A DNA stretch of 64,000 nt, taken from the NCBI GenBank assembly GCA_963832395.1, contig CAWHTV010000004.1:200999-264998 (forward strand), given 5' to 3'. Positions 9,034 to 22,216 of this stretch are shown piece after piece (position 1 is the first letter of the stretch; each line of letters opens with the position of its first letter). The DNA is from an uncultured delta proteobacterium (GTDB lineage: Bacteria; Desulfobacterota; Binatia; Binatales; Binataceae). The notes under the pieces were generated by a model, which made no database searches, was not told the origin of the DNA, and saw nothing but the letters and a program-made list of their open reading frames with translations. The position numbers and the translations under genes are program-made.

Positions 9034-12000
9034 TTGACGATGCGGTGTTCGAAATGCGGGACCAACAATCCGTCCGCCAACAACTTCTGCGCGAAGTGCG
9101 GGAATGCGCTCATCAAACCCTGCGCAAAATGCAAAACAGAAAACCCTCCGACATCCGACTTCTGTGGCAAGTGCGGCACTTCACTCACAAATGATGCGGG
9201 CGCCGCAGCCGTAACTTCGTCGTCGCCAGAATTGGCCTCCGGCGTGCGCCTCGCGCCCGGGCAAACCTCCGCTGACGCCGGGGCGCTCGACGGCGAGCGC
9301 AAGACAGTCACCGCGCTGTTTGCCGACATCAAGGGGTCAACGGAGCTGATGGAGGACCTCGACCCCGAGGAGGCCCGTGCGATTATCGATCCAGCGCTCG
9401 AGCTGATGATCGAAGCGGTTCATCGCTACGACGGTTACGTCGTGCAGTCGACCGGCGACGGGATTTTCGCGCTGTTCGGGGCGCCGGTGGCGCATGAGGA
9501 CCATCCGCAGCGGGCGCTCTTCGCAGCGTTGCGCATGCAGGAAGACCTGAAACAGTATTCGGTAAAAGTTGTCGCCGACGGAAGCACACCTATCCAGGGT
9601 CGCGTCGGTATCAACACTGGCGAAGTGGTGGTCCGTTCGATCCAGACCGGCGCGGGTAACGTGGAGTACACTCCGATTGGGCACACCACCAACCTGGCCT
9701 CGCGGATGCAGACGGCAGCCCCGGTCGGCTCAATCGCGGTTGCCGAAGCCACCCGCAGGCTTTGCGAAGGCTACTTTATCCTCAAGCCGCTCGGCGCGAC
9801 CAAAGTCAAAGGCGTCACCGAGCCGGTCAACATCTACGAAGTGACGGGACTGGGGCCACTGCGCACGCGGTTGCAGCGCTCGGCGGGGCGGGGGCTGTCG
9901 CGATTCGTCGGTCGTGACCGCGAGATCGAGGAAATGAAGCGTGCGCTTGAGCGCACCACGGGCACGCGCGGGCAGATGGTAGCGGCGATAGGAGAGGCGG
10001 GGCTGGGCAAATCCCGTTTGTTCTATGAGTTCAAAGTGATCGCGGGCAGGCTGGATGCCTGCTGCTGGAGACGTTCTCGATCTCTCATGGCAAGGCCTCT
10101 GCATATCTGCCGTTGATCGACCTGCTCAGGAATTATTTCGAGATCACGGCGGAGGATGACGAGCGTAAGCGGCGCGAGAAGATCACCGGCAAAGTGCTCG
10201 CGCTGGATCGTACCCTGGAAGACACGCTGATCTTACCTGTTCTCGCTCCTCGGCGTGAGTCGAACGCGATCGATCCGCTCGCCCAGATGGATCCGCAGAT
10301 CAGGCAGCGACGGACACTGGAAGCGGTCAAGCGGCATGCTACTGCGCGAGAGTTTCAACCAGCCATTGATCGTTATCTTCGAGGATCTGCACTGGATCGA
10401 TGCGGGAACTCAGGCTTTTCTGAACCTGCTGGTCGATGCGCTGGCTACCGCCCGCATCCTGCTGCTGGTCAACTATCGGCCCGAGTATCGCCACGAATGG
10501 GGGAACAAGACCTACTACACGCAGTTGCGGCTCGATCCGCTGGGCAAGGAGAGCGCCGGGAAGCTGCTGACCGCGCTTTTGGGCGACGGCGCCGAGCTTG
10601 GACCGCTCAAGCGGCTGATTATCGGGAAGACCGAGGGTAACCCGTTCTTCATGGAGGAGACGGTACAGGTTCTCCTCGACGAGGGAGCGTTGGTCCGCAA
10701 CGGAACTGTCAAACTCACCAAATCACTCGCCGAGCTGAAGATTCCGCCCACGGTGCAGGGCATACTGGCCGGGCGCATCGACCGGCTGCCGGCGGATGAG
10801 AAGGACCTGCTTCAGGCCTTGGCGGTTATGGGCAAGGAGTTCCGGCTCGGTCTGGTAAAGCAGGTGGTCGGCAAGCCGGACGCTGAGCTGCAGCGGATGC
10901 TGTCGGACCTTCAGCTCGGCGAGTTCATCTACGAGCAGCCCGCTTTTCCGGATGTCGAGTACACCTTCAAGCATGCACTGACGCAGGAAGTCGCCTATAA
11001 CTCGGTGCTTGTCGAACGTCGCCGCCTTCTGCATCGGCGCACCGGTGCCGCAATCGAGTTGTTGTATCGGAACCAGCTGGAAGACCACTACCCCGACCTT
11101 GCTCGCCACTACCGCCATAGCGACGATGTTGCCAAGGCGGTTGAGTACCTGCGTCTGGCGGCGGAGCAGGCGGTCGAGCGATCGGCATACTCGGAGGCGG
11201 CGGCCGACCTGAGGGCCGCCATTGCCCTTGTCGGCGGACTTCCCGAAGGACCGGACCGCCTGAGGGTCGAGCTTGCGCTGCATACCACTGAGGGTTCGGT
11301 TGCCACGGTGTTACACGGAATCGGTTCGCAGGAGCGCGAGCGCGCCCTGGAGCGGGTATGCGAGATCAGTGAGCGGCTCAAGGACACGACTTCATTGCTT
11401 CGCGGATCGATCTTTCTTTCGCTGCTTTATATCGCACGGGGAGAGCCTGTGCACGCCCGGGAAATATGCAGCCGGCACCTCGAGTTGGCCGAGCAGTCTG
11501 GCGTGGCGGAAATACTTGGACCCGCACACTGGATTATCGAACTCAGCACGCTTTTCAGCGGCGATCTGAACGAGGCGCGCAGGCTGTCGCGCGAATGGAG
11601 GGAGCGTTTTGAGGCCGCACCTCAAGCGGCATTCCCTATCAATCTGCCGGCGGAAGTTCCGGGACATGGCGCATTGACTGTTCATCTTCTGGGTGGAATT
11701 TCAGAGGCTCTAAAGCTCAGCCAGGAATCGCTGGAACGCGCGCGCATACTCAAACAGCCCTTCACTCTCGGCATGGTGTTGCTTACTGTTGGCTGGCTAT
11801 ATCAGGTGCGGCGTGAGCCGGAGGCCGTGCGCGAAATCGCCGAAGCGACGATGGCAATCGGCGAGGAACACGGGTTCCCCGAATGGCTGGAGTGGGGCCG
11901 ATGGCTTCACGGCTGGGCACTAGCCGAGCTCGGAGACATGGAGCGGGGTGTTGCCGAGATGGAAGCAGGGATCGCCGGGTTTGCTCCCATGGGCGGCGTA

Positions 12001-12414
12001 CCCAGGCAGGCGTTTACGGCCGCGATGCTGGCGAAGGGTTACGAGAAGCTCGGGCGAATCGACCAGGCGATCGCGATGCTCGACGATCAGCGAGTGCGAA
12101 TCGAGCGCTCCGGTGAACGACTGGACGAGGCCGAGCTTTATCGAGTGAGGGGCGAACTGCTCTACGCGCGTGACGGCGCGGGCAGCAGCGAGGGTGAGTC
12201 GTGCCTGCGCAAAGCGATCGAAATCTCGCGGCGGCAGGAATCTCGATGGTGGGAATTGCGCGCGACCACGAGCCTGGCGCGGATGCTGATCGAACAGGGC
12301 CGCTCCGACGAAGCGCGCACGATGCTCGCCGAGATCTACGGCTGGTTCAAAGAGGGTTTCGACACCGCCGACCTGAAGGGCGCAAAAACGCTGCTCGAAC
12401 AGCTAAACGCATAG
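9034..12414 (+). CDS. Double zinc-ribbon / class III adenylate-guanylate cyclase / AAA ATPase / TPR-like multidomain signalling protein (about 4 frame breaks between 10050 and 10335)
   Basis: CSKCG..CAKCG..CAKCK..CGKCG, cyclase motifs ALFADIKGSTEL and STGDGIFALFG, P-loop GEAGLGKSRL, then LIVIFEDLHWID and a long helical-repeat tail. Pieces are ORFs 9034..10116, 10113..10640 and 10255..12414. Confidence 0.8.
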
Positions 12415-12420
12415 CTCCAC

Positions 12421-13734
12421 ATGGGCGAGATTCCAGCTCTTGACCTGACGCCGGAACGCGCAGCGGGACCGGAGCCGGCGATCCCGACCAGTGCCGTGGT
12501 CGCCACGGTGCTGGGCAACGCGCTGGAGTTTTACGATTTCACCACCTATGCCTTCTTTGCGGTGATGATCGGGCACGCGTTCTTTCCAGCCCAGGATCCA
12601 TTCATCAGCCTACTGCTGTCCGTTGCCGCGTTCGGTGTCGGCTTCATCACCCGTCCCCTGGGAGGCATCGTGATCGGCGCCTACGCCGACCGCGCCGGAC
12701 GAAGGCCCGCGATGATGCTGAGCATCGGATTGATGGCGGTGGGCATGGTGGTGCTGGCGGCGACACCGTCCTACGCCACCATCGGGCTCGCGGCGCCGAT
12801 TCTGGTGATCCTGGCGCGTTTGATCCAAGGCTTCGCGCTGGGCGGCGAGGTCGGACCGTCCACTTCTTATCTGCTGGAAGCGGCGCCTGCGGGAAAACGC
12901 GGGCAATACGGAGCCTGGCAGATAGCCAGCCAGGGCGCGGCCTCGGCGCTCGCGGGATCGCTTGGAGTGCTGTTGTCGTGGTTGCTCGACGCCAACGACA
13001 TGCAATCCTGGGGCTGGCGCATCCCCTTCATCGTCGGCGTCGCCATCGTGCCGGTGGGGCTGATCATGCGCGGCCAGTTGCAGGAGACCGTGGACCTCCG
13101 AGCGAGGACCACCCATTCGAGCGCGAGCCACGTGCTCTCCGCCCTGCTCCAGCATCACCTCCGCCCGCTGGTGCTGGCCCTGATGCTCATCACGAGCGGT
13201 ACGATCGCCACCTATATCGGCGTCTACATGACGACCTACGCGCTCAGCACGCTGCACATGGCAACCGGCGCGTCGATGGGAGCCACGGTCGTGGTGGGTC
13301 TGTGCCTGCTGGTGTTCGGTTTGATCGGTGGATGGCTCTCTGACCGTGTCGGACGCAAACCGGTCTACCTCGTATCGAAACTGGCGCTGACCGCGGTGGC
13401 CTATCCGGCCTTCGTGGTGATCAACCGGCATCACACTCTTACCGCGCTGCTGCTGATGGCGGGACTGATGTCCGCGCTGAACGCGCTTGGCGGCGTCGTG
13501 CTGGTGGTGATTCCTGAGCTCTTTCCGAAATCCGTGCGCAGCGCCGGCCTGTCGACTGTCTATGCGATCGCGGTCACCGTGTTCGGCGGCACCACGCAGG
13601 TCGTGGTGGCCTGGTTGATCCACGCTACGGGCGATCCCCTCTCGCCCGCCTGGTACCTGATAGGGACCAGCGCGATCGGTGTCGTGGCGATTTTGATGAT
13701 CGCGGAAACGAAGGACGCCACGCTGGCGGACTGA
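12421..13734 (+). CDS. MFS transporter (metabolite:H+ symporter-like)
   Basis: Intact 437 aa. LGNALEFYDFTTYAFFA N-terminal signature and GAYADRAGRRP loop; about 12 hydrophobic segments. Confidence 0.8.
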   Translation: MGEIPALDLTPERAAGPEPAIPTSAVVATVLGNALEFYDFTTYAFFAVMIGHAFFPAQDPFISLLLSVAAFGVGFITRPLGGIVIGAYADRAGRRPAMMLSIGLMAVGMVVLAATPSYATIGLAAPILVILARLIQGFALGGEVGPSTSYLLEAAPAGKRGQYGAWQIASQGAASALAGSLGVLLSWLLDANDMQSWGWRIPFIVGVAIVPVGLIMRGQLQETVDLRARTTHSSASHVLSALLQHHLRPLVLALMLITSGTIATYIGVYMTTYALSTLHMATGASMGATVVVGLCLLVFGLIGGWLSDRVGRKPVYLVSKLALTAVAYPAFVVINRHHTLTALLLMAGLMSALNALGGVVLVVIPELFPKSVRSAGLSTVYAIAVTVFGGTTQVVVAWLIHATGDPLSPAWYLIGTSAIGVVAILMIAETKDATLAD

Positions 13735-13819
13735 GCGTTCGCCGCTCGCTTCATTGGCCGTTGCGCAGGGGCTCTGCTACGCTCCGCCAGACAATTTGAT
13801 CTGAGGAGGGCCGGGTCCC

Positions 13820-14257
13820 ATGCCGCAGATGATGAATGACGCCGCTTTCAGGGCATACGCGATCGCCTGCTCGATCCTGGTCTTCAAAATGTTGGCCGCC
13901 GGGATCCTCACTGCGTCGACGCGCTCGCGGGTCAAGCAGTTTCTCAATCCGGAGGACGCCGGACTGTTAGGCGGCGCCGGCGTCATGCAGGAGCATCCCG
14001 ACGTGGAGCGGATGCTCCGGCTGCATCGCAACGACCTCGAGAACATCCTGCCCTTCTTCACGGTGGGGCTGATCTTCGTGTTGATGGGCGTCTCGGCTTT
14101 CGGCGCCCAGGTGTATTTCTACACTTTCACCGGTGCGCGAATCGCCCACACCATCACTTACGTAGCGAAGCTGCAGCCGTGGAGAACCGTGGCCTACGTG
14201 GTCGGAGTCGTCTGCATGGTCGGGATGCTGGTGCAGATTCTAATGGCCGCCCTCTGA
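13820..14257 (+). CDS. MAPEG family membrane protein (microsomal glutathione S-transferase-like)
   Basis: 145 aa with four hydrophobic helices; RAHRNDLENI-like motif (LRLHRNDLENILPF). Confidence 0.65.
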   Translation: MPQMMNDAAFRAYAIACSILVFKMLAAGILTASTRSRVKQFLNPEDAGLLGGAGVMQEHPDVERMLRLHRNDLENILPFFTVGLIFVLMGVSAFGAQVYFYTFTGARIAHTITYVAKLQPWRTVAYVVGVVCMVGMLVQILMAAL

Positions 14258-14438
14258 ATCATTGCGAGCGGGAAGCCCGGTTTTCGGACCGCCTAACGGC
14301 TTTGCCGTTCAGGTTAGGGCCGAAGGCAGTGCCCGGCTCGAAAACCCGCTGTAACCCCGAAAGCGGGCGGAGCAGGGTGGTCTGATCGGCTCCCGCAGGG
14401 GGGCGTCGCGCTCGACGCAGGACAAGCACAAACGCTCG

Positions 14439-14466
14439 TTGACAATACTTGTCCATGTTTTACAAT
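14439..14466 (+). promoter_or_regulatory. Sigma70-type promoter of the RHH-PIN operon
   Basis: TTGACA (14439-14444), 16-nt spacer, TACAAT (14461-14466). GACAA/TTGTC half-sites at 14421, 14441 and 14449 overlap it. Confidence 0.6.
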
Positions 14467-14722
14467 GACGACTATGCGTACCGCCAAGACCATATCCATC
14501 ACTCTGCCGCCCGACCTGCTGGTGAAGGCGCAGGAGCTAGCCGAGCGCGAGCACCGCACCATGAGTGAATTATTCCGCGAGGCGCTGCGCTGCTACATGC
14601 AAACCGATGCGGGATGGAAGACTCTGTTGTTGCGCACACGGACCACCGGCCAAGCCCTCGGGATTAAGAGCGAGGCGGATGTAGAGCGCCGGTCCGATGA
14701 ATATCGCCATGACAAGCGATGA
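14465..14722 (+). CDS. Ribbon-helix-helix (CopG-type) antitoxin
   Basis: KTISITLPPDLLVKAQELAEREHRTMSELFREALR gives the RHH beta-strand plus two helices. Stop overlaps the PIN start (ATGA 14719-14722). The true start may be ATG 14474, because ATG 14465 lies inside the -10 box. Confidence 0.8.
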   Translation: MTTMRTAKTISITLPPDLLVKAQELAEREHRTMSELFREALRCYMQTDAGWKTLLLRTRTTGQALGIKSEADVERRSDEYRHDKR

Positions 14723-15129
14723 CCAGGGTGGTGGCCGACACCAACATTTACGTATCGGCCATGATGTTCGCCGGGCTGCCTGGTTCCTTGCTTGACCTTG
14801 GATTGCTGCAGGCTTTCACGCTGGTTATCTCACCGCCGCTGCTGGATGAACTCGAAGACAAGTTGCGAGTCAAATTCGGCGTAACGGCCGAAGATGCCGC
14901 GACCATCCGCGCCAAGCTGGAAGGGGTAGCTGATGTGGTCGCCCCGGATTTCGTTCTCCACGTGGTCAAGGACGACCCTGATGATAACCGCGTGCTCGAA
15001 TGCGCGGTGGCTGGCAAGGCCGACTACATCGTCAGTGGCGATCGCCATTTGCTGAAACTCAAGGCGCATGCCGGCATACCGATTCTAACGGCCCGGCAAT
15101 TTCTCGATGCGGTTGCTCCGCCCAGTTGA
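14719..15129 (+). CDS. PIN-domain toxin (type II TA)
   Basis: 136 aa. VVADTNIYVS, LDELEDKL, DDNRVLECA and SGDRHLL supply the conserved acidic PIN residues. Translationally coupled to the RHH gene. Confidence 0.8.
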   Translation: MTRVVADTNIYVSAMMFAGLPGSLLDLGLLQAFTLVISPPLLDELEDKLRVKFGVTAEDAATIRAKLEGVADVVAPDFVLHVVKDDPDDNRVLECAVAGKADYIVSGDRHLLKLKAHAGIPILTARQFLDAVAPPS

Positions 15130-15608
15130 CCGCCGAGAACGCGGGGTAGCAGCGCGATCACCTACGGGACAGGAAATCGTTAGTTTATCGACAGAAGGGC
15201 TTCGGCGATCCAAGAAGACGACCTGCTGCGAGCGACTAAAATCGACGCGGCACGGTCAGGCAAGCGCGACTATCAGGTAGTCGAGAAACGCTGCGCGCTT
15301 ATCTTGGCCTCAATCTCCTGGAACGTGTCCGTGCACGCTCCGGCCCAAAAAAAACAGGTGCTGGCTCTTCACCGAGTCGCCAGCCTGAATCTTATCGGTG
15401 AAAAAAACAGGGGGGGCGCTTGGATGTGGATAACGCGCCGTGGATATCGTTGACATGGAATCGTCTGAAGGGTTCGATCGATATTGAATTATTTTCAGGA
15501 CGGTGAACGCCCGACGATACGCAACTATCGCTGAATATCGAAGCAGTCGCTTACTGGAACCGCGTTGCGTTCGAAATCCCCGACACCATCGGATACGACG
15601 ACTACCGG

Positions 15609-16991
15609 ATGTTCTCCCGGGGCATTGCGGAAGATCTGACCGCCCGTGCGCCGGATCGTCTGCCCGGCGCGCTGACCATCTTCCAGTATCCGAATTTCAA
15701 ACCCGACAATCCCGACAACTTGCGGCCAATGGCCGTCGTGAGCGTGCCCGACCTCGCGCTGTTAAGGGCCGATGCCGGATTGATCATCAAAATCACCGAT
15801 CCGCTGCTTTCCGATAACGTCTGCTCATACCGCCTGAACTCGTCCCTCATCCCTGGCGCGGCGTGGGGCTTTGACCGCCGAGGTTCCTGGAAGAAGCGGT
15901 TCCTCGCGGGCGGGATGCAGATCCTCGATGAAGCCGAATTCCCGTTCATGTGCAGGACGGACATCCGCAAGTATTATCCCTCGATCCAGCTTGATCTCCT
16001 GCAGGAAGCGCTGCTGATGAACGGCTGCGATCCCCAGGCTGTGGGTCGCATTTTTGCGGTTTTGAAATTCTGGCAGCAGTGCTACGGCCTCGGCGGATTG
16101 CCGATAGGCCCGGAGGCCTGCGCCGTTCTCAGCAACTTCTTCCTGCGCCCAATCGATGAGCTGATGGACGTGGCCGGCGCGCAGTACAAAAGGTACGGCG
16201 ACGATATGCTGATATTCAGCCGAGACCGACCCATGGGCGAGGCTGTCGCCGAATTCCTGGACGATGAATTGCGCCAACTGCAACTCACAAGGTCCGTAGA
16301 AAAAACAGAGTTCTTCGACGACCCCGCGGCCGCCAGGTCCAACCTGCAAGACCACGAGATCAATTACATGGAGGACGCCGCGGACTTCGACCAGGGCATC
16401 GCCTTATACACCGTCAAGCGCGGCTTCCACCGCCTGCTCTATACGGCTCCCCAGGACATCAAGCCGTCACGCTTCCGGTGGGTGCTGGGGTTCCTCAAGA
16501 GGCGTCGTGACCCCGATGGCTGCTTTGATCTCTCCCGGCGCGCGGACCTGATGAACGTCGACCCGAAGGCCGCGACGAATTATCTGGCCGTCGGCAGCCG
16601 GGATCAGCGCGTTCTGATCAATTGCATGCAGCGCTTGGCGCAGCCGCGGGAAGAGAGGTTCGACGGTCTCAACCTCCACCAGCTGCGCCTGATGGCGCAG
16701 ACGAAGACAGGTAAGGACGAAGCCAAGGAGTTCGAACGAATCGTCTCCGATAAATCCACGCCGTGGCCCACGCGGAGCTGGGCATGGGCGGCCTTTGCGC
16801 ACGCCGATGGAACCAAACCATCCCGTCTCATGGAAGCTGCCCGACACGAGGCCAACCAGAATATTCGCAGGGCGATCGTCGCCACCTTGAAGCGCCATTC
16901 CGATTCGTCGCAATGCCAAACTTTTCTGCGCGATGAAGCCGAACGCTCCCCCACGAACAAATACACCGTCGAGTGGGTAAAAGCCGCGTAG
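15609..16991 (+). CDS. Reverse transcriptase, stand-alone Abi/UG (defence-associated) type with C-terminal helical-repeat domain
   Basis: RT motifs LRPMAVVSVPDLALLRA, CRTDIRKYYPSI, GLPIGPEACAVLSNFFL, YKRYGDDMLIF (YGDD at 16194-16205) and LQLTRSVEKTEFF. About 210 aa of non-polymerase helical tail follow. The N-terminus may extend upstream (see findings). Confidence 0.85.
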   Translation: MFSRGIAEDLTARAPDRLPGALTIFQYPNFKPDNPDNLRPMAVVSVPDLALLRADAGLIIKITDPLLSDNVCSYRLNSSLIPGAAWGFDRRGSWKKRFLAGGMQILDEAEFPFMCRTDIRKYYPSIQLDLLQEALLMNGCDPQAVGRIFAVLKFWQQCYGLGGLPIGPEACAVLSNFFLRPIDELMDVAGAQYKRYGDDMLIFSRDRPMGEAVAEFLDDELRQLQLTRSVEKTEFFDDPAAARSNLQDHEINYMEDAADFDQGIALYTVKRGFHRLLYTAPQDIKPSRFRWVLGFLKRRRDPDGCFDLSRRADLMNVDPKAATNYLAVGSRDQRVLINCMQRLAQPREERFDGLNLHQLRLMAQTKTGKDEAKEFERIVSDKSTPWPTRSWAWAAFAHADGTKPSRLMEAARHEANQNIRRAIVATLKRHSDSSQCQTFLRDEAERSPTNKYTVEWVKAA

Positions 16992-17151
16992 CTCTGATGG
17001 CGGAAATCCGGGTTCAATAGTCAAGCCGAGTGACCCGACTCCCGGCGATCCCAGGCACGCCCGGTCCGACCAATGAACCATGGCACCCGTTGCGGCCTCT
17101 GGTGACGGGGCGCGGCCAGTCGTGATAATCTTCAATCACACGAGGTTGATC

Positions 17152-19641
17152 ATGGCGGACTCCACCAACGGCACTTCCAACGGTTCTGCGCAGAAAAGCT
17201 TTCGAGTCATCGGCACCCGGCCCATCCGGCACGACGGAATCGAAAAGGTCACCGGGCGAGCCAAATATGGCGCCGACTACTCATTCCCGGGAATGCTCTA
17301 CGGCAAGGTCCTGCGCAGCCCGCATGCGCACGCCCGGCTAATCGCGATTCGTACGGAAAAGGCGGCCGCGCTGCCCGGCGTGAAGGCGATAATCACCGGC
17401 GACGACCTTCCCGACATTCCCGGCACCACTGCGATGATGGGCGAACTCGTGGTCAACACGCATTACCTGTCGCTCAACGTGATGGCGCGGGGCAAGGTGC
17501 TGTACGACGGTCATGCGGTCGCCGCCGTCGCCGCCACCAGTCCGCATATCGCCGAGGAGGCTCTGCGCCTCATCGAGGTCGACTACGAACCGCTGCCTCC
17601 GGTGATGACCGCCGAGGCCGCGATGAAGCCGGATGCGCCGATCCTGCTGCCCGAGATTCGCCAGAAATTCATCGCCGGGCGCACTGATCCCGGATCGCCC
17701 GAGGGCCCCGACCAGCCGACCAACATCGCCGCGCACATCCAGTTCCAGCGCGGCGACCTCGAGGCCGGCTTTCGCGAGGCCGACTACGTCGTCGAACGCG
17801 AGTTCAAAACCGCCACCGTCCATCAGGGCTATATCGAGCCGCAGAACGCGGTCGCGCTCTACAGCTCAGACGGCCACGCAACCATCTACTGCTCGACCCA
17901 GGGCACCTTCAACGTGCGCACGCTCACAGCCACCGTGCTCAAAATGACCGAGGGCCAAATCAAAGTGGTGCCGGCGGAAATCGGTGGCGGCTTCGGCGGC
18001 AAAACCACCATCTATCTCGAACCGCTGGCCCTGTTGCTCGCGCAAAAGAGCGGACGGCCGGTCAAGATGACGATGAGCCGCGCCGAGGTGCTGCGCGCGA
18101 GCGGTCCGACTTCGGGAACCTGGATCAAGGGTAAGATGGGCGCGACGCGCGACGGCAAAATCACCGCCGCGCAGTTCTGGTTGGCTTACGAGGCGGGGGC
18201 TTATCCCGGCTCGCCGTTCGCGCCGGGCGCGATGTGCTGCACCGGCCCCTACAACATTCCCAACCTGCTTCTCGACTCGTACGACGTGGTGGTCAACCGG
18301 CCCAAGGTCGCGGCCTATCGCGCACCGGGATCGCCAAGCTCGGCGTTCGCCTGCGAATCGCTGCTCGACGAACTCGCGCTGCGCTGCGGAATGGATCCGC
18401 TCGAGATGCGTATCCTCAACGGCGCCCACGAGGGCACTCCGCAACCCGCCGGCCCACCATACAAACGCATCGGTTTCATCGAAACCTGCGAGGCGCTGAA
18501 GAACAGCGAGTATTACCGCTCGCCCCTGGTGGGCCCCAATCGCGGGCGCGGCGTCGCCGCCGGCTTCTGGTTCAACGGTGGCCTGCAATCGGCGGCGGCC
18601 GTCAACCTGCACAACGACGGCACGCTCAGCGTCGTGACCGGCTCGGTCGATATCGGCGGATCGCGCGCCGCGATGGCGATGGTGGCGGCGGAGGTGCTGG
18701 GCGTCGAGGCCGAAGACGTGCGCCCGATCGTCGCCGATACCGACTCGATCGGCCATACCGACGTGACCGGCGGCAGTCGTATCACGCTCGCCACCGGGAT
18801 GGCGGTCTACGAGGCGGCCGAAGACGTGGTGCGCCAGCTCAAGGAGCGCGCCGCCAAGCTGTGGGAGAAGAAACCCGAAGAAGTCGAGTTCAACAACGGG
18901 CGCCTGAGCGCGATCGGCAACGGCGTCAAGCCGATGACGATCAAGGAAATCACGCCGCGCCTTGCCCGCACCGGCGGCCCCATCACCGGCCGCGCGACGC
19001 TCAATGCCGGCGCGGTCGGCGCGGTCGGCAACGCGTTCGCGCTCACCTGCGTCGACGTCGAAGTCGATCCCGATACCGGCAAGGTGAAGATTCTGCGCTG
19101 CGCCGTCGCCCAGGATGTTGGCCGCGCTATCCATCCGTCCTACGTCGAAGGGCAATTGCAGGGCGCCACGGCGCAGGGGATCGGATGGGCGCTCAACGAG
19201 GAATACGTCTACGACGAACGCGGCATCATGCGTAACACCGGGCTGCTGGACTACCGGATGCCGACCTGCCTGGATCTGCCGATGATCGAGACGATTATCG
19301 TCGAAGTCCCCAACCCCAGCCATCCATTAGGCGTGCGCGGCGTGGGCGAAGTCTCGATCGTCTCGCCGATGGCGGCGGTCGCAAACGCCATCTATCGCGC
19401 CGTCGGGGTGCGGATGACCGAGTTGCCGATGTCACCGCCGAAACTGCTCAAGGCGATGCTGCAGCATCGGCGGTCCGGCGAGGAAGTTGCATACCGCGGC
19501 CGCCGACTGATACGAATCGCACGCCCAGATTCTGCTCTTAAAAGCGCTGTCTCGGACTCGATGGCTGGAGGCGCTGGAGCTCGTGCGCTGAAGCAGTCAA
19601 AAGCGAGTGTTGGTCAGTTTAGGCTGGAATTGCGGCAATAA
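17152..19641 (+). CDS. Xanthine dehydrogenase family molybdopterin-binding large subunit, copy 2 (orphan paralogue)
   Basis: ATG 17152 follows GAGG. Collinear with copy 1 over its whole length (FRVIGTRPIRHDG, GGGFGGK, AAYRAPG, ADTDSIGHTDVTGGSR). No frame break in the body. The 3' end is uncertain: an alternative stop TGA 19508-19510 sits in the +1 frame. Confidence 0.85.
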   Translation: MADSTNGTSNGSAQKSFRVIGTRPIRHDGIEKVTGRAKYGADYSFPGMLYGKVLRSPHAHARLIAIRTEKAAALPGVKAIITGDDLPDIPGTTAMMGELVVNTHYLSLNVMARGKVLYDGHAVAAVAATSPHIAEEALRLIEVDYEPLPPVMTAEAAMKPDAPILLPEIRQKFIAGRTDPGSPEGPDQPTNIAAHIQFQRGDLEAGFREADYVVEREFKTATVHQGYIEPQNAVALYSSDGHATIYCSTQGTFNVRTLTATVLKMTEGQIKVVPAEIGGGFGGKTTIYLEPLALLLAQKSGRPVKMTMSRAEVLRASGPTSGTWIKGKMGATRDGKITAAQFWLAYEAGAYPGSPFAPGAMCCTGPYNIPNLLLDSYDVVVNRPKVAAYRAPGSPSSAFACESLLDELALRCGMDPLEMRILNGAHEGTPQPAGPPYKRIGFIETCEALKNSEYYRSPLVGPNRGRGVAAGFWFNGGLQSAAAVNLHNDGTLSVVTGSVDIGGSRAAMAMVAAEVLGVEAEDVRPIVADTDSIGHTDVTGGSRITLATGMAVYEAAEDVVRQLKERAAKLWEKKPEEVEFNNGRLSAIGNGVKPMTIKEITPRLARTGGPITGRATLNAGAVGAVGNAFALTCVDVEVDPDTGKVKILRCAVAQDVGRAIHPSYVEGQLQGATAQGIGWALNEEYVYDERGIMRNTGLLDYRMPTCLDLPMIETIIVEVPNPSHPLGVRGVGEVSIVSPMAAVANAIYRAVGVRMTELPMSPPKLLKAMLQHRRSGEEVAYRGRRLIRIARPDSALKSAVSDSMAGGAGARALKQSKASVGQFRLELRQ

Positions 19642-19686
19642 GGACGTAATTTGAAGATTTTGCGCTTCATTTCATCATAGAACCTA

Positions 19687-19714
19687 TTGCAACTAATTAT
19701 AACTGGCGTACAAT
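19687..19714 (+). promoter_or_regulatory. Candidate sigma70 promoter upstream of the MoxR/VWA genes
   Basis: TTGCAA, 16-nt spacer, TACAAT, in an AT-rich patch about 320 nt upstream of ATG 20036. Confidence 0.3.
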
Positions 19715-20035
19715 GAGTCTCGCTGGCCGGGGTTTGCCCCCCCTTTTCCCGGTTGGCTGGGGCCGGACGGCGCGAGCCGTTCGGCCTCGATTAAATTCTC
19801 TCGCGCTGCCGCGACTCGCGTCTCGCAGATAGGCCGTGATACGCTACGCGTTTGCCGGCGACAAGCCCGCAATTCAAATCAAATTCGGTGGACCGCGGAA
19901 TTCGCGCGACTGAACGTGCAAGGCGATTGACGGTGGGCAATTGGCTGTTCGCAATTGACTGCGCGGTCGAATGACCGCAATGCTCAGCTTCTCAACCGGG
20001 CGAAGTGAACGTCACGCAGGCAACATCCAAACAAG

Positions 20036-20908
20036 ATGAACGTCACGCCCGAATTCGTTAGCGACGGCCTGCGACGCGCGCGCTACATCACCAACGAGCG
20101 CGTCGAGACCGCGGTCTTTCTCGCGCTCGCGCTCGACAAGCCGCTGCTCATCGAAGGGCCGGCCGGCTCGGGCAAGACCGAAGTGGCGAAGGTGCTGGCC
20201 GAGATGCTCGGCGCCGAGCTTATCCGGCTGCAATGCTACGAGGGACTCGACGAGGCGCGCGCGCTTTACGAATGGAACTATCAGAAGCAGCTCTTGCGCC
20301 TCCAGGCCGATCAGCATCAGGGACTGCGCTGGGAAGATGTTTCCGAGCATCTGTTCTCGCGCGAGTACCTGCTCGAGCGCCCGCTGCTGCGCGCGATATC
20401 GTCGCCGCGCAAGGTGGTCCTGCTGATCGACGAGGTCGACAAGGCCGACGAGGAGTTCGAAGCGTTCCTGCTCGAGCTGCTCTCCGACTTCCAGGTCACG
20501 GTTCCCGAACTCGGCACGCTTCGCGCCCGCGAGCATCCGGTGGTCGTGCTGACTTCCAACCGCGCCCGCGAACTGTCAGAGGCGCTCCGCCGCCGCTGTC
20601 TGCATCTGTTCATCGATTTTCCCGGCCTCGAACAGGAACGGCGCATCATCGAGCTCAAGATTCCCGAGCTCGACGCGCTGCTCGCCGCCGACGCCGCGCG
20701 CTTCGTCAATGCGCTGCGCAAGCTCGGGCTCAAGAAACCGCCCTCGATCGCCGAGACGCTCGACTGGGCGCGCGCCCTTCTGCGCCTGGGTGTAACGCAA
20801 CTCGACGCATCCGCGATTCGCTCCGCGCTCGGCGTCTTGCTCAAACACGAGGACGACCGCGCCAAGGTCGAAGCCAAAGCGGGCGCGCTCGCCGCGCGCC
20901 CGCGATGA
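20036..20908 (+). CDS. MoxR-family AAA+ ATPase (CoxD-like maturation factor)
   Basis: Intact 290 aa. Walker A GPAGSGKT and Walker B LLIDEVDKA, with an AAA_5/MoxR layout. Confidence 0.85.
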   Translation: MNVTPEFVSDGLRRARYITNERVETAVFLALALDKPLLIEGPAGSGKTEVAKVLAEMLGAELIRLQCYEGLDEARALYEWNYQKQLLRLQADQHQGLRWEDVSEHLFSREYLLERPLLRAISSPRKVVLLIDEVDKADEEFEAFLLELLSDFQVTVPELGTLRAREHPVVVLTSNRARELSEALRRRCLHLFIDFPGLEQERRIIELKIPELDALLAADAARFVNALRKLGLKKPPSIAETLDWARALLRLGVTQLDASAIRSALGVLLKHEDDRAKVEAKAGALAARPR

Positions 20909-22216
20909 GCACGCTCAGCGCCGAGTTGCTGCGCTTCGTTGGCGAATTGCGCGTGGCCGAAGTGCCGGTGTCGGTGGCCGAAACGCTCGACGCGATGCGC
21001 GCAGTGGCGGCGGCGGGTCTCGCCGACCGCTCGCGGATGCGCGAGGCGTTGGCGGCGGCGCTGGTCAAGGACGAAGCCGACCGCGAATCGTTCGACGAAG
21101 TGTTCGCGCGCTTTTTCGGCGCGGGCGCCGGGACGGCCCGCGAAGCGGGCCGCCCCGGTGCCCATCGCCGTATCGCCTCCGCCGCGGGCGGCGGCCGCGG
21201 CGAACAGGGAGCGTCGGCCCGGGCGCGCGCCGAGCGCGCCCGGGCCGACGCTCCGCCCCATGGCGGCGCGCCACCCAGCGCGCCGCCGCGAGCGAAGTCC
21301 GAGCCGGAGGCGGCGGGCGCCAAAGCGCCCGCCGCCTCCGGCCAAGCCGCGCCGCGCCCCGGCGCGGCGCGAGTCCGCTGCCGCGGGGGGCGGCGTCCTG
21401 AAGGACGCCGCCCCCCTCGGCGAGCGCGCGGCCCAGGCCGGCGCCGGCGTCGAAGCCGACGAGCCCGGGGTCGACGCACGCCGCCAGGCTGCGCTTCGCA
21501 GCGCGCGGCGCGCACCATTCGCGGCATATACCGACCTCGAGTACGAAGCCGCGCGCGACGCGCTGGCGCCGCTCGCGCGCCGCTTCCGCCTGCGATTGGG
21601 CCGCAGGCTTCACGCCGCGCCACGCGGCCGGGTCGATTTCCGCCGCACCATCCGCGCCTCCTTGCAGCACGGCGGCGTATTGGCCGAACTGCGCTTTCGC
21701 GCACGGCGCCCGCGCCACGTCGACCTTCTCATCCTGGCCGACGTTTCGGGCTCCGTACGATACTGCTCGGCGCTGATGCTCGAGCTGGTGGCGGGAGTAT
21801 ACGGACACTTCCGGCGTGTTCGCAGCTTCGTCTTCATCGATCGTCTCGCCGAGGCCGAATTCGCCGGCGGCCATGTCGCGACCGAGCCGGCGCTGGATCT
21901 CTACGCGCGATCGGATTTCGGACGGGTGCTTGGCGAACTATGGGAACGGCGTTCGGAACTGCTTTCACGGACGACGCTGATGGTGATACTGGGGGACGGG
22001 CGTAACAATCGACGGCCGGCACGGGCCGACCTGCTACGCGATTTGCGACGGCTGTGCCGCGCCGTCGTATGGCTGACTCCGGAGCCGACTGAACGATGGG
22101 GTACCGGCGACAGCGCCATCCATCAGTACGCGCGCGAGGTTGACGCGCTGCATCGATGCGCCAACCTGGGCGAGCTTGAGCGTTCGCTCGAGCGTTCGAT
22201 CAGGAGCGCCTTCTGA
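20905..22216 (+). CDS. VWA-domain protein (CoxE-like; frame break in the A/P/R-rich linker near 21370)
   Basis: ATGA overlap with the upstream gene. N-terminus MSTLSAELLRFVGELR in frame 1. C-terminal VWA domain with MIDAS motif LILADVSGSV in frame 2 (ORF 20939..22216). Confidence 0.75.

Follow-up and report, generated by a model that had tools for sequence, protein, structure and literature searches.

A stand-alone, UG23-like Class 1 UG/Abi reverse transcriptase with a helical-repeat C-terminus from an uncultured member of the Binataceae

Class and domain organisation of the reverse transcriptase

In the Class 1 UG/Abi reverse transcriptases (RTs), the RT is fused to an alpha-helical repeat (alphaRep) domain (PMC9226505). 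AbiK and Abi-P2 perform protein-primed, untemplated synthesis (PMC9508834), as do DRT4 and DRT6 (PMC12783706), and this mode of synthesis has been generalised to Class 1 (PMC13174585). The priming tyrosine is Y44 in AbiK, Y61 in Abi-P2 and Y298/Y303 in AbiA (PMC9508834, PMC11077055), its position being different in every solved Class 1 enzyme. In the model for DRT4 and DRT6, a hexamer makes tyrosine-primed, untemplated single-stranded DNA (ssDNA), which is toxic once a phage ssDNA-binding protein shields it from host exonucleases (PMC12783706). Class 1 products are not always random, since DRT3b, also of Class 1, makes poly-dCdA. For UG23, the group nearest to the enzyme described here, the association with defence was rated inconclusive by Mestre et al. 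(PMC9226505).

The RT encoded in the window, by which we mean the whole 64-kb stretch of DNA analysed, is a stand-alone Class 1 UG/Abi RT in the sense of Mestre et al. 2022 (PMC9226505); it and the other window features discussed below lie on the + strand. The original prediction had described an RT of the UG/Abi class with a helical-repeat C-terminus, a description that agrees with the best PADLOC profiles, all of them Class 1 groups, and with full-length Foldseek matches to Class 1 folds. Its subgroup, which could not be assigned by eye, is narrowed by the profile searches: RT_UG23 is the nearest profile (PDLC03761; 2.3e-41, 139.9 bits, residues 15-492 against profile positions 14-481 of 489), followed in order by UG32, UG21, Drt8 (UG7), UG19, UG22 and UG33, and relatives down to 24% identity give the identical ranking. 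Across the clade relatives sampled, RT_UG23 scores range from 86 to 156 bits, and these modest values suggest that the clade is a distant sister of UG23 and not part of its core. The clade is found mainly in metagenome-assembled genomes of Candidatus Binataceae and Verrucomicrobia, and the UG23-like branch as a whole amounts to about 294 clusters at 50% identity, mostly from soil Binataceae and Verrucomicrobia. Over the whole length, the best Foldseek match is DRT6 (9wy8_A, TM 0.67/0.67), ahead of AbiA (0.53), UG15/DRT4 (0.48-0.52), AbiK (0.52) and Abi-P2 (0.50).

All the RT peptides on which the prediction had been built were located where expected, namely LRPMAVVSVPDLALLRA at nt 15720-15770, CRTDIRKYYPSI at 15951-15986, GLPIGPEACAVLSNFFL at 16095-16145, YKRYGDDMLIF at 16185-16217, with YGDD exactly at 16194-16205, and LQLTRSVEKTEFF at 16278-16316, and so were the three peptides from the C-terminal helices. 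The motif A Asp codon is at 15960-15962, Pfam RVT_1 scores above its gathering threshold (36.8 vs 29.6 bits), and across 102 family sequences there is no variation at D152, D232 or D233, the catalytic residues. The RT-like fingers/palm domain spans 15645..16322 (approximately residues 47-272 in the 494-residue numbering justified below), and an alpha-helical repeat (alphaRep/HEAT-like) domain of about 13 helices stands in the place of the thumb at 16323..16985 (residues 273-493). This region is all-helical in the AF2 model, with pLDDT above 90, in keeping with the amphipathic repeats originally read from the translation; the model as a whole has a pLDDT of 90.3 and a pTM of 0.89, and for one homologue (P0029) a Pfam HEAT_2 match had been precomputed. 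Among the tyrosines, Tyr359 of the C-terminal domain (nt 16581-16583) is Tyr in 91% of the 102 family sequences, Y157 in 86% and Y61, within an FxYP motif, in 52%; by conservation, Y359, Y157 and Y61 are candidate priming residues, of which only the first two are well conserved.

The enzyme is not a retron, group II intron or diversity-generating retroelement (DGR) RT, and the follow-up searches found no maturase or endonuclease domain, no retron VTG and no template/variable repeat pair, in line with what had been noted by eye. The retron models of NCBIfam remain far under their cut-offs (retron_St85_RT, 38.5 bits against 235; Retron_TIR_antiphage, 15.8 against 600), YGDD is followed by MLIF and not by VTG, and the group II model TIGR04416 reaches 38 bits against a cut-off of 300 and covers the RT core alone; the C-terminus is an alpha-repeat. 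The NCBIfam Drt2, Drt3a and Drt5 models are likewise far under cut-off. A DGR RT structure matches over the RT core only (TMq 0.41-0.43), just short chance-level repeats were found in a search of 13700-17400 for a template/variable pair, and an Rfam search of the RT locus returned no retron RNA, no intron RNA and no match of any other kind.

Extent of the gene and its translation start

The gene was originally taken to be a 460-codon ORF at 15609..16991. That ORF exists, and the part of the claim that does not stand is its start, for the conserved frame opens 34 codons earlier. The RT frame is open and conserved back to 15507, right behind an in-frame TGA (15504..15506), and we infer a full extent of 15507..16991, that is 494 codons plus TAG. 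The N-terminal segment missing from the shorter ORF, TPDDTQLSLNIEAVAYWNRVAFEIPDTIGYDDYR (15507..15608, 34 codons), is conserved as protein down to 33% identity, matches RT_UG23 over profile positions 14-63, lifting the score from 126 to 140 bits, and is folded in the AF2 model (helices 4-20 and 31-46, pLDDT 77-90); therefore, the RT protein is about 494 residues long and not 460. Purifying selection acts along the whole gene, the first 10 codons included, with a pN/pS of 0.31 for the 34-codon segment vs 0.23-0.29 across the remainder. ATG 15609, on the other hand, is not conserved even inside the closest clade, and ATG, GTG and TTG are all absent from 15507-15608. Because the true N-terminus has none of these codons, gene callers systematically truncate this RT family at an internal Met, and the annotated ORF as cloned would lack at least 34 conserved residues of the fingers domain.

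The TGA that directly precedes the conserved coding sequence is taken as a genuine stop because the PIN, RHH and MAPEG genes of the locus all end in TGA; in relatives, the DNA upstream of the equivalent position is non-coding and holds extra stops. Directly 5' of this stop there is a Shine-Dalgarno-like AGGACGG (15497..15503), kept as (G)AGGA(C/T/A)GG in the window clade, and in the other clades a GGAGG-type motif ends 6-10 nt 5' of the conserved N-terminal codon in 17/17 sequences, vs 8% of control codons. That codon is of a non-start type: the window clade has ACG or CCC, the other clades TTC without exception. ACG 15507 is the best-placed near-cognate codon of the window segment, and lineages L058-60 lack near-cognate codons altogether.

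A conserved N-terminus that lacks a start codon and follows a stop codon could signify a decaying pseudogene, as would the want of ATG, GTG or TTG between TGA 15504 and ATG 15609 and the state of a distant relative with a truncated gene call, locus L109, which is truly interrupted by an internal TAG, a plain break. However, a conserved N-terminus that follows a stop and has no start codon is seen again, with the 494-codon frame intact, in about 28 of 34 distinct family sequences that come from many samples, and another truncated gene call in the wider family (locus L110) has the same Shine-Dalgarno-TTC arrangement. Decay is also opposed by a pN/pS of 0.23-0.31 that takes in the first 10 codons and by the fixed distance of the Shine-Dalgarno motif in all 17 sequences outside the clade, so we hold it to be highly improbable.

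Other routes to a full-length protein were considered and rejected. Read-through or recoding of the TGA from an upstream start was set aside because relatives have further upstream stops, with no protein-level conservation there, and TGA ends the neighbouring genes. A start at GTG 15503, whose last base is shared with no more than the NTGA overlap, and a subsequent +1 shift were discarded because about half of the independent lineages, no more than chance would give, have a canonical start at this overlap, purifying selection on the RT frame already begins at codon 1, and similarity in the alternative-frame ORF (15503-15817) does not reach beyond the close clade. For slippery-site frameshifting near the conserved TTC, a consistent heptamer is absent.

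The RT appears, from the comparison of these sequences, to be translated from a non-canonical start beside the Shine-Dalgarno motif, which would hold the protein at a very low level. It is conceivable, if rather unlikely, that the family dropped canonical start codons, that the Shine-Dalgarno motif fixes ribosomes on a non-start codon, and that synthesis at trace level, or mainly when start-codon fidelity falls (as with IF3 limitation upon stress or phage takeover), would serve as a translational fuse on a defence protein that makes DNA and may be toxic. On that reading, the strict retention of TTC, never replaced by TTT, would mean that the codon itself, beyond the amino acid, is read unusually at initiation. 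The start codon of infC, AUU, is an example of an IF3-sensitive non-canonical start. Genes of the infC type and the window RT are alike in having a good Shine-Dalgarno motif at normal spacing, followed by a codon other than AUG, GUG or UUG, with very low, fidelity-dependent translation as the expected outcome; they are unlike in that AUU gives way here to ACG/CCC or a strict TTC, and in L058-60 to no near-cognate codon whatsoever. To our knowledge, a family-wide arrangement of this kind around a non-start codon has no precedent, and a literature search for non-canonical starts in defence RTs returned nothing relevant. Rates of initiation at non-canonical start codons are given by Hecht et al. 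(bioRxiv 10.1101/063800). If true, the anomaly would offer a rare example from nature of a whole bacterial protein family that uses non-canonical initiation, and it would point to a principle by which toxic defence enzymes are regulated.

Upstream block and genomic neighbourhood

A conserved non-coding block of about 92 nt (15415..15506), which we read as a putative promoter plus short 5' UTR, matches 12 family loci in blastn at 71-89% identity, and the same search with the spacer 15130-15414 and the downstream stretch 16992-17140 gave zero matches among family loci. By this measure of conservation, no non-coding DNA other than the block accompanies the RT gene, and block and gene alone are the conserved unit. 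Within it, a putative promoter of the sigma-70 type (15450..15478) would pair the -35 hexamer TTGACA (15450-15455), which is unchanged in 13/13 clade sequences, with a weak -10-like TTCGAT (15473-15478) at a spacing of 17 nt; the -10 is only TnnnAT-like and fails the criteria of the promoter scan. A putative DnaA-box-like nonamer, TGTGGATAA (15425..15433), is found 16 nt 5' of the -35 hexamer; it is the sole match to TGTGNAWAA in the 64-kb window, where 0.81 would be expected anywhere, and of 13 clade members aligned, six have a perfect copy, six a copy with one mismatch and one has none.

A conserved 5' block also brings to mind the Class 2 systems and DRT9, in which the RT copies a cis-encoded noncoding RNA (ncRNA), with a template that might here be hidden in the block or at the 5' end of the mRNA. 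Besides the conservation of the 92 nt, such a template would fit the somewhat lower synonymous divergence of the first 34 codons (pS 0.39 vs 0.47-0.51) and the presence of DRT9 among the Foldseek matches by E-value. Nevertheless, the block is short and is accounted for by the invariant -35 hexamer and the Shine-Dalgarno motif; RNAalifold on the block plus 5' coding region finds essentially no structure (-8.6 kcal/mol, with a covariation term of -0.58), Rfam has no match, the TM to DRT9 is just 0.41-0.43 vs 0.67 for DRT6, and the best profile matches are all Class 1 groups, which together leave a copied ncRNA very unlikely.

As the original prediction had stated, a RHH-PIN pair precedes the RT on the same strand, 479 nt upstream of the ORF start at 15609, with the RHH gene at 14465-14722 and the PIN_3 gene at 14719-15129. 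The further suggestion of a three-gene unit could be developed into one defence system of RHH antitoxin, PIN toxin and RT, the RT sensing infection or making DNA that controls the PIN nuclease, and has in its favour the common strand and the 479-nt distance, the absence of a terminator-like site between PIN and RT, and the location of all three genes within one low-GC islet (about 14.3-17.2 kb). It did not survive the linkage survey: by tblastn of the window RHH and PIN proteins (E <= 0.01), a homologue of either was found in 0/104 fetched loci, approximately 45 of which have a clear family member. Moreover, the closest RT homologues (92%, 80%, 76% and 73% identity) have unrelated upstream genes, the one at 92% being flanked by CoA-transferase and acyl-CoA dehydrogenase; the PIN-RT spacer (15130-15414) shows no conservation; RT and toxin-antitoxin (TA) pair are each preceded by DNA of their own, a conserved block in the case of the RT and, in the promoter scan, a near-consensus promoter in that of the TA pair (TTGACA-16-TACAAT, 14439-14466); and the sole other PIN gene nearby (locus L023) is of a different family, downstream and on the opposite strand. 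Judged on this survey and on conservation, the pair is an unrelated neighbour of the RT inside a shared low-GC islet, and joint action of the three genes is scarcely credible.

No other gene takes the partner's place. All-vs-all clustering of the flanking ORFs within 4 kb at 45 loci revealed none in common that might be a conserved partner or effector, and PADLOC detected nothing among the recurrent small neighbouring ORFs; neighbours are lineage-specific only, such as SoFic, an SLFN_AlbA_2 gene, recombinases and small ORFs without matches. At most family loci the neighbours are metabolic and not related to defence, and the window, where the RT is surrounded by MAPEG, RHH, PIN and molybdopterin dehydrogenase genes, is no exception; beside some relatives, defence or mobile genes are found (SoFic, SLFN_AlbA_2/HATPase_c_4, Type_ISP_C, an integrase, D5 primase and serine recombinases). 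The RT locus is an islet of 53-60% GC with flanks of 63-67%, and no att repeats or tRNA were found at its borders.

These metabolic flanks are one reason to consider that the RT is a cellular enzyme outside defence, with a part in DNA damage response, regulation or stress, kept vertically in the Binataceae much like a housekeeping gene. So is a 37%-identical paralogue/orthologue in another Binataceae genome (L006), which is likewise followed, a few kb downstream, by coxD/coxE (MoxR/VWA); the inconclusive defence score of UG23 and the DnaA-box-like site in the promoter region point the same way. A gene of this sort, however, is at odds with the patchy distribution of the RT (just 46 close clusters in 5.8 billion proteins), with its place inside a low-GC islet, with variable neighbourhoods that include integrases, recombinases, SoFic, a Schlafen-type gene and a Type ISP fragment, and with the anti-phage function of all Class 1 relatives characterised so far. 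We consider a cellular role unlikely.

Proposed role and comparison with known systems

The reading that we favour, and hold to be reasonably probable, is that this UG23-like Class 1 RT would be an oligomeric, tyrosine-primed, untemplated DNA polymerase acting in a one-gene abortive-infection defence, with its own upstream block and with RHH-PIN as an unrelated neighbour. By analogy with the Class 1 enzymes studied so far (AbiK, Abi-P2, AbiA, DRT4, DRT6 and DRT3b), it would assemble into trimers or hexamers, prime on one of its own tyrosines and polymerise DNA with no nucleic-acid template, and the ssDNA product would turn toxic when a phage factor stabilises it.

With the window RT, the Class 1 UG/Abi enzymes gain a UG23-like branch that is uncharacterised and has no effector. 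As Class 1 enzymes turn out to make different kinds of DNA (random ssDNA, poly-dCdA), the branch is a reasonable, though not urgent, candidate for biochemistry.

Among the described systems, UG23 itself is the end-to-end best profile and shares with the window RT a length of about 490 residues and the architecture of RT plus HEAT-like repeats; unlike the window clade, whose loci have no such gene, UG23 has been described with a 2TM-NUDIX or SLATT partner. AbiK, Abi-P2 and AbiA (PDB 7r06, 7r08, 8oz7) have in common with the window RT an RT-like plus a helical domain, with neither thumb nor maturase, at a TM of 0.50-0.53; they differ in the extra HEPN domain of AbiA and the longer C-terminal blades of AbiK, and the priming tyrosines of the three have no confident alignment with the window RT. 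DRT6 (UG12) and DRT4 (UG15) are unlike it in sequence, with just 12-14% identity and with the PADLOC Drt6 and Drt4 profiles far below UG23, and Tyr125, on which DRT4 primes, lacks a demonstrated counterpart. Both are nevertheless, like the window RT, single-gene systems with the two-domain fold (PDB 9wy8, 9vdo, 9l9s), and DRT6 provides its best global structural match, with a TM of 0.67 both ways over 526 aligned columns.

Extent of the reverse transcriptase gene

The original prediction placed a reverse transcriptase (RT) in a 460-codon ORF at 15609–16991 on the forward strand, downstream of a toxin–antitoxin (TA) pair, and its raw observation was correct, since the ORF exists, each RT peptide quoted lies where expected (YGDD exactly at nt 16194–16205) and the TA pair is present. 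RVT_1, scoring above the gathering threshold, is the sole Pfam domain in the ORF. The start at 15609 was nevertheless wrong, the true coding start lying further upstream. Comparison with longer homologues, which share a conserved N-terminal segment, shows that the window encodes this segment too, as TPDDTQLSLNIEAVAYWNRVAFEIPDTIGYDDYR, in the RT frame between the in-frame TGA at 15504–15506 and ATG 15609. Adding the segment lifts the PADLOC RT_UG23 score, 126.2 bits without it, to 139.9 bits and makes the match end to end (residues 15–492 against profile positions 14–481 of 489). A confident AlphaFold2 model (29-sequence alignment; pLDDT 90.3, pTM 0.89) folds the segment as helices 4–20 and 31–46. 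Among 15 members of the window clade (the closest relatives), pN/pS is 0.31 for the segment, 0.23 for its first ten codons and 0.23–0.29 for the rest of the gene, and ATG 15609 is present in the six closest sequences only. For these reasons the segment is part of the protein, and the RT gene is therefore 15507–16991, encoding 494 aa.

Upstream block and translation start

The block at 15415–15506 is the only conserved DNA outside the RT ORF, the PIN–RT spacer and the 3′ flank otherwise having no match in the family loci. It bears, on the forward strand, a −35-like TTGACA (15450–15455) invariant in the clade, a weak −10-like hexamer beyond a 17-nt spacer and a Shine-Dalgarno-like AGGACGG; no conserved RNA structure was found in the block, and Rfam returned no match. 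A putative DnaA box, TGTGGATAA (15425–15433), lies 16 nt upstream of the −35 hexamer; it is a perfect consensus, the only one in the 64-kb window, and 12 of 13 clade members carry it intact or with a single mismatch.

The stretch from TGA 15504 to ATG 15609 lacks ATG, GTG and TTG. This extends to approximately 28 of 34 distinct family sequences (33–92% identity), in which the conserved N-terminus starts 0–10 codons past an in-frame stop and the conserved helix is reached before any canonical start appears, so that gene callers begin the proteins at internal Met codons (e.g., MCRTD, MAV). The anomaly was seen in the window (15504–15512) and in loci L004, L005, L035–L038, L042, L047, L050, L051, L057, L058 and L110, where a conserved non-start codon usually stands just past an in-frame TGA. 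In the other clades, a GGAGG-type motif ends 6–10 nt before a conserved N-terminal Phe codon in 17/17 sequences (about 10–12 lineages), compared with 8% of internal TTC codons taken as control, and it adjoins that codon even in sequences with a canonical start farther upstream. The Phe codon is TTC in all 17 and never TTT, which makes up 38% of internal Phe codons in the same genes. L110, from a further lineage, has the same layout, and in L058–L060 a stop immediately precedes the Shine-Dalgarno motif, with no near-cognate codon after it. At the homologous positions the window clade has ACG 15507 and CCC 15510, 6 and 9 nt past AGGA, and 12 of the 13 aligned members retain the ACG.

The data are at odds with read-through, recoding, slippery-site frameshifting and a +1 shift from an overlapping GTG. 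Judged from sequence, Shine-Dalgarno-directed initiation at a non-canonical codon would be the most economical reading. In E. coli reporters, such initiation reaches about 0.01–3% of AUG (bioRxiv 10.1101/063800), and a very low level would suit a potentially toxic enzyme.

Genomic neighbourhood

The RHH_1 antitoxin gene (14465–14722) and the PIN_3 toxin gene (14719–15129), both Pfam assignments on the RT strand, overlap by 4 nt and end 479 nt before ATG 15609. The three-gene RHH–PIN–RT unit proposed for them is not supported: none of the 104 fetched loci has an RHH or PIN homologue (tblastn, E ≤ 0.01), and the neighbours of RT relatives differ. The 92%-identical RT is flanked by CoA-transferase and acyl-CoA dehydrogenase genes; the 80%-identical one follows an unannotated gene preceded by a mercury-resistance cluster with MerC genes and a pyridine-nucleotide oxidoreductase, and has a different PIN/MazE pair downstream on the opposite strand; the 73%-identical one lies within an integrase/D5-primase/ParB element, and further relatives have housekeeping genes on both sides. 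The TA pair also comes with a near-consensus promoter of its own, TTGACA-16-TACAAT (from 14439; 11/12 matches). Because the −10 of this promoter runs into the listed ATG 14465, ending at 14466, the TA mRNA may be leaderless or the true RHH start may lie further downstream.

Clustering of all flanking ORFs in 45 family loci gave no shared partner gene, and the NUDIX and SLATT effectors associated with UG23 are absent. Neighbours are lineage-specific: SoFic, an SLFN_AlbA_2/HATPase_c_4 gene, serine recombinases and a Type ISP fragment. In the verrucomicrobial clade (L046 3253–4377; upstream genes of L058, L059 and L060), a Fic/DOC defence gene of SoFic type (PADLOC SoFic, 5e-45) stands directly upstream of the RT, whose 5′ UTR holds a TATAAT box along with a conserved GCCCC-UUCG-GGGG hairpin. 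The SLFN_AlbA_2 + HATPase_c_4 gene (~500 aa) adjoins the RT in L005 (9469–10965), L027 (4140–5666), L032 (1800–3344) and L105 (1818–3314, also with an integrase), in varying position and orientation. In the remote member L109 (3–1577), which has a canonical Met start, the RT is called as two genes because of an internal in-frame TAG, which marks a pseudogene or else an error of assembly.

The TA pair, spacer and RT occupy a low-GC islet (~14300–17200; 53–60% GC versus 63–67% in the flanks), at which neither tRNA nor flanking direct repeats were found. In another Binataceae genome (L006 7896–13922, against window 15507–22216), the same coxD-like MoxR ATPase (77–78% identity) and coxE-like VWA genes follow a 37%-identical RT at a distance of a few kb, with UDG and beta-lactamase genes where the window has molybdopterin dehydrogenase; this common arrangement may reflect a variable hotspot or an old locus inherited vertically. 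At 10255–12414, a TPR-rich 719-aa ORF keeps only the last part of AAA_16 at its N-terminus and may be truncated there or mis-started.

Class, fold and proposed mechanism

The predicted UG/Abi-class RT with a helical-repeat C-terminus is supported by profile, fold and model. PADLOC ranks UG23 above UG32, UG21, Drt8, UG19, UG22 and UG33, and Mestre et al. 2022 (PMC9226505) place all of these top groups in Class 1 of the UG/Abi RTs, whose RT carries a fused HEAT-like alpha-repeat domain; the model has about 13 helices over residues 273–493. As also predicted, it is not of retron or group II intron type, the NCBIfam models for these and for Drt2–5 covering the palm only, far under cut-offs. The subgroup, previously unassigned, is narrowed to Class 1, UG23-like rather than UG23, because no sampled relative exceeds 156 bits on that profile. 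The catalytic aspartates are invariant across 102 family sequences. The family has few close members (46 clusters among 5.8 billion proteins) but is sizeable at profile range (294 clusters; 50% identity, E ≤ 1e-30), its named genomes being Candidatus Binataceae, some Verrucomicrobia (Udaeobacter) and remoter Actinomycetota relatives. The RT is a new representative of an already known class, the start-codon arrangement being its sole surprising element.

All Class 1 enzymes studied are trimers or hexamers that synthesize DNA untemplated by nucleic acid, with one of their own tyrosines as primer, as described for AbiK and Abi-P2 (PMC9508834) and for DRT4 and DRT6 (PMC12783706); the DRT3b product is a protein-dictated repeat (PMC13174585). 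Candidate priming tyrosines, with conservation across the 102 sequences, are Y359 (repeat domain; 91%), Y157 (motif A; 86%) and Y61 (fingers; 52%). DRT4/DRT6 ssDNA is normally cleared by host exonucleases and becomes toxic once a phage DNA-binding protein shields it (PMC12783706). By analogy, the window RT, a Class 1 enzyme with neither partner nor ncRNA, would most likely act in the same way, the architecture being the only part observed: its tyrosine-primed, untemplated ssDNA would be cleared by host exonucleases and become toxic when protected by a phage protein. In Foldseek searches against the PDB, the model aligns full-length with solved Class 1 enzymes, DRT6 (9wy8_A) ranking first globally with TM 0.67 in both directions, followed by AbiA, UG15/DRT4, AbiK and Abi-P2 (TM 0.48–0.53), whereas similarity to group II, retron-type and DGR RTs is confined to the RT core.
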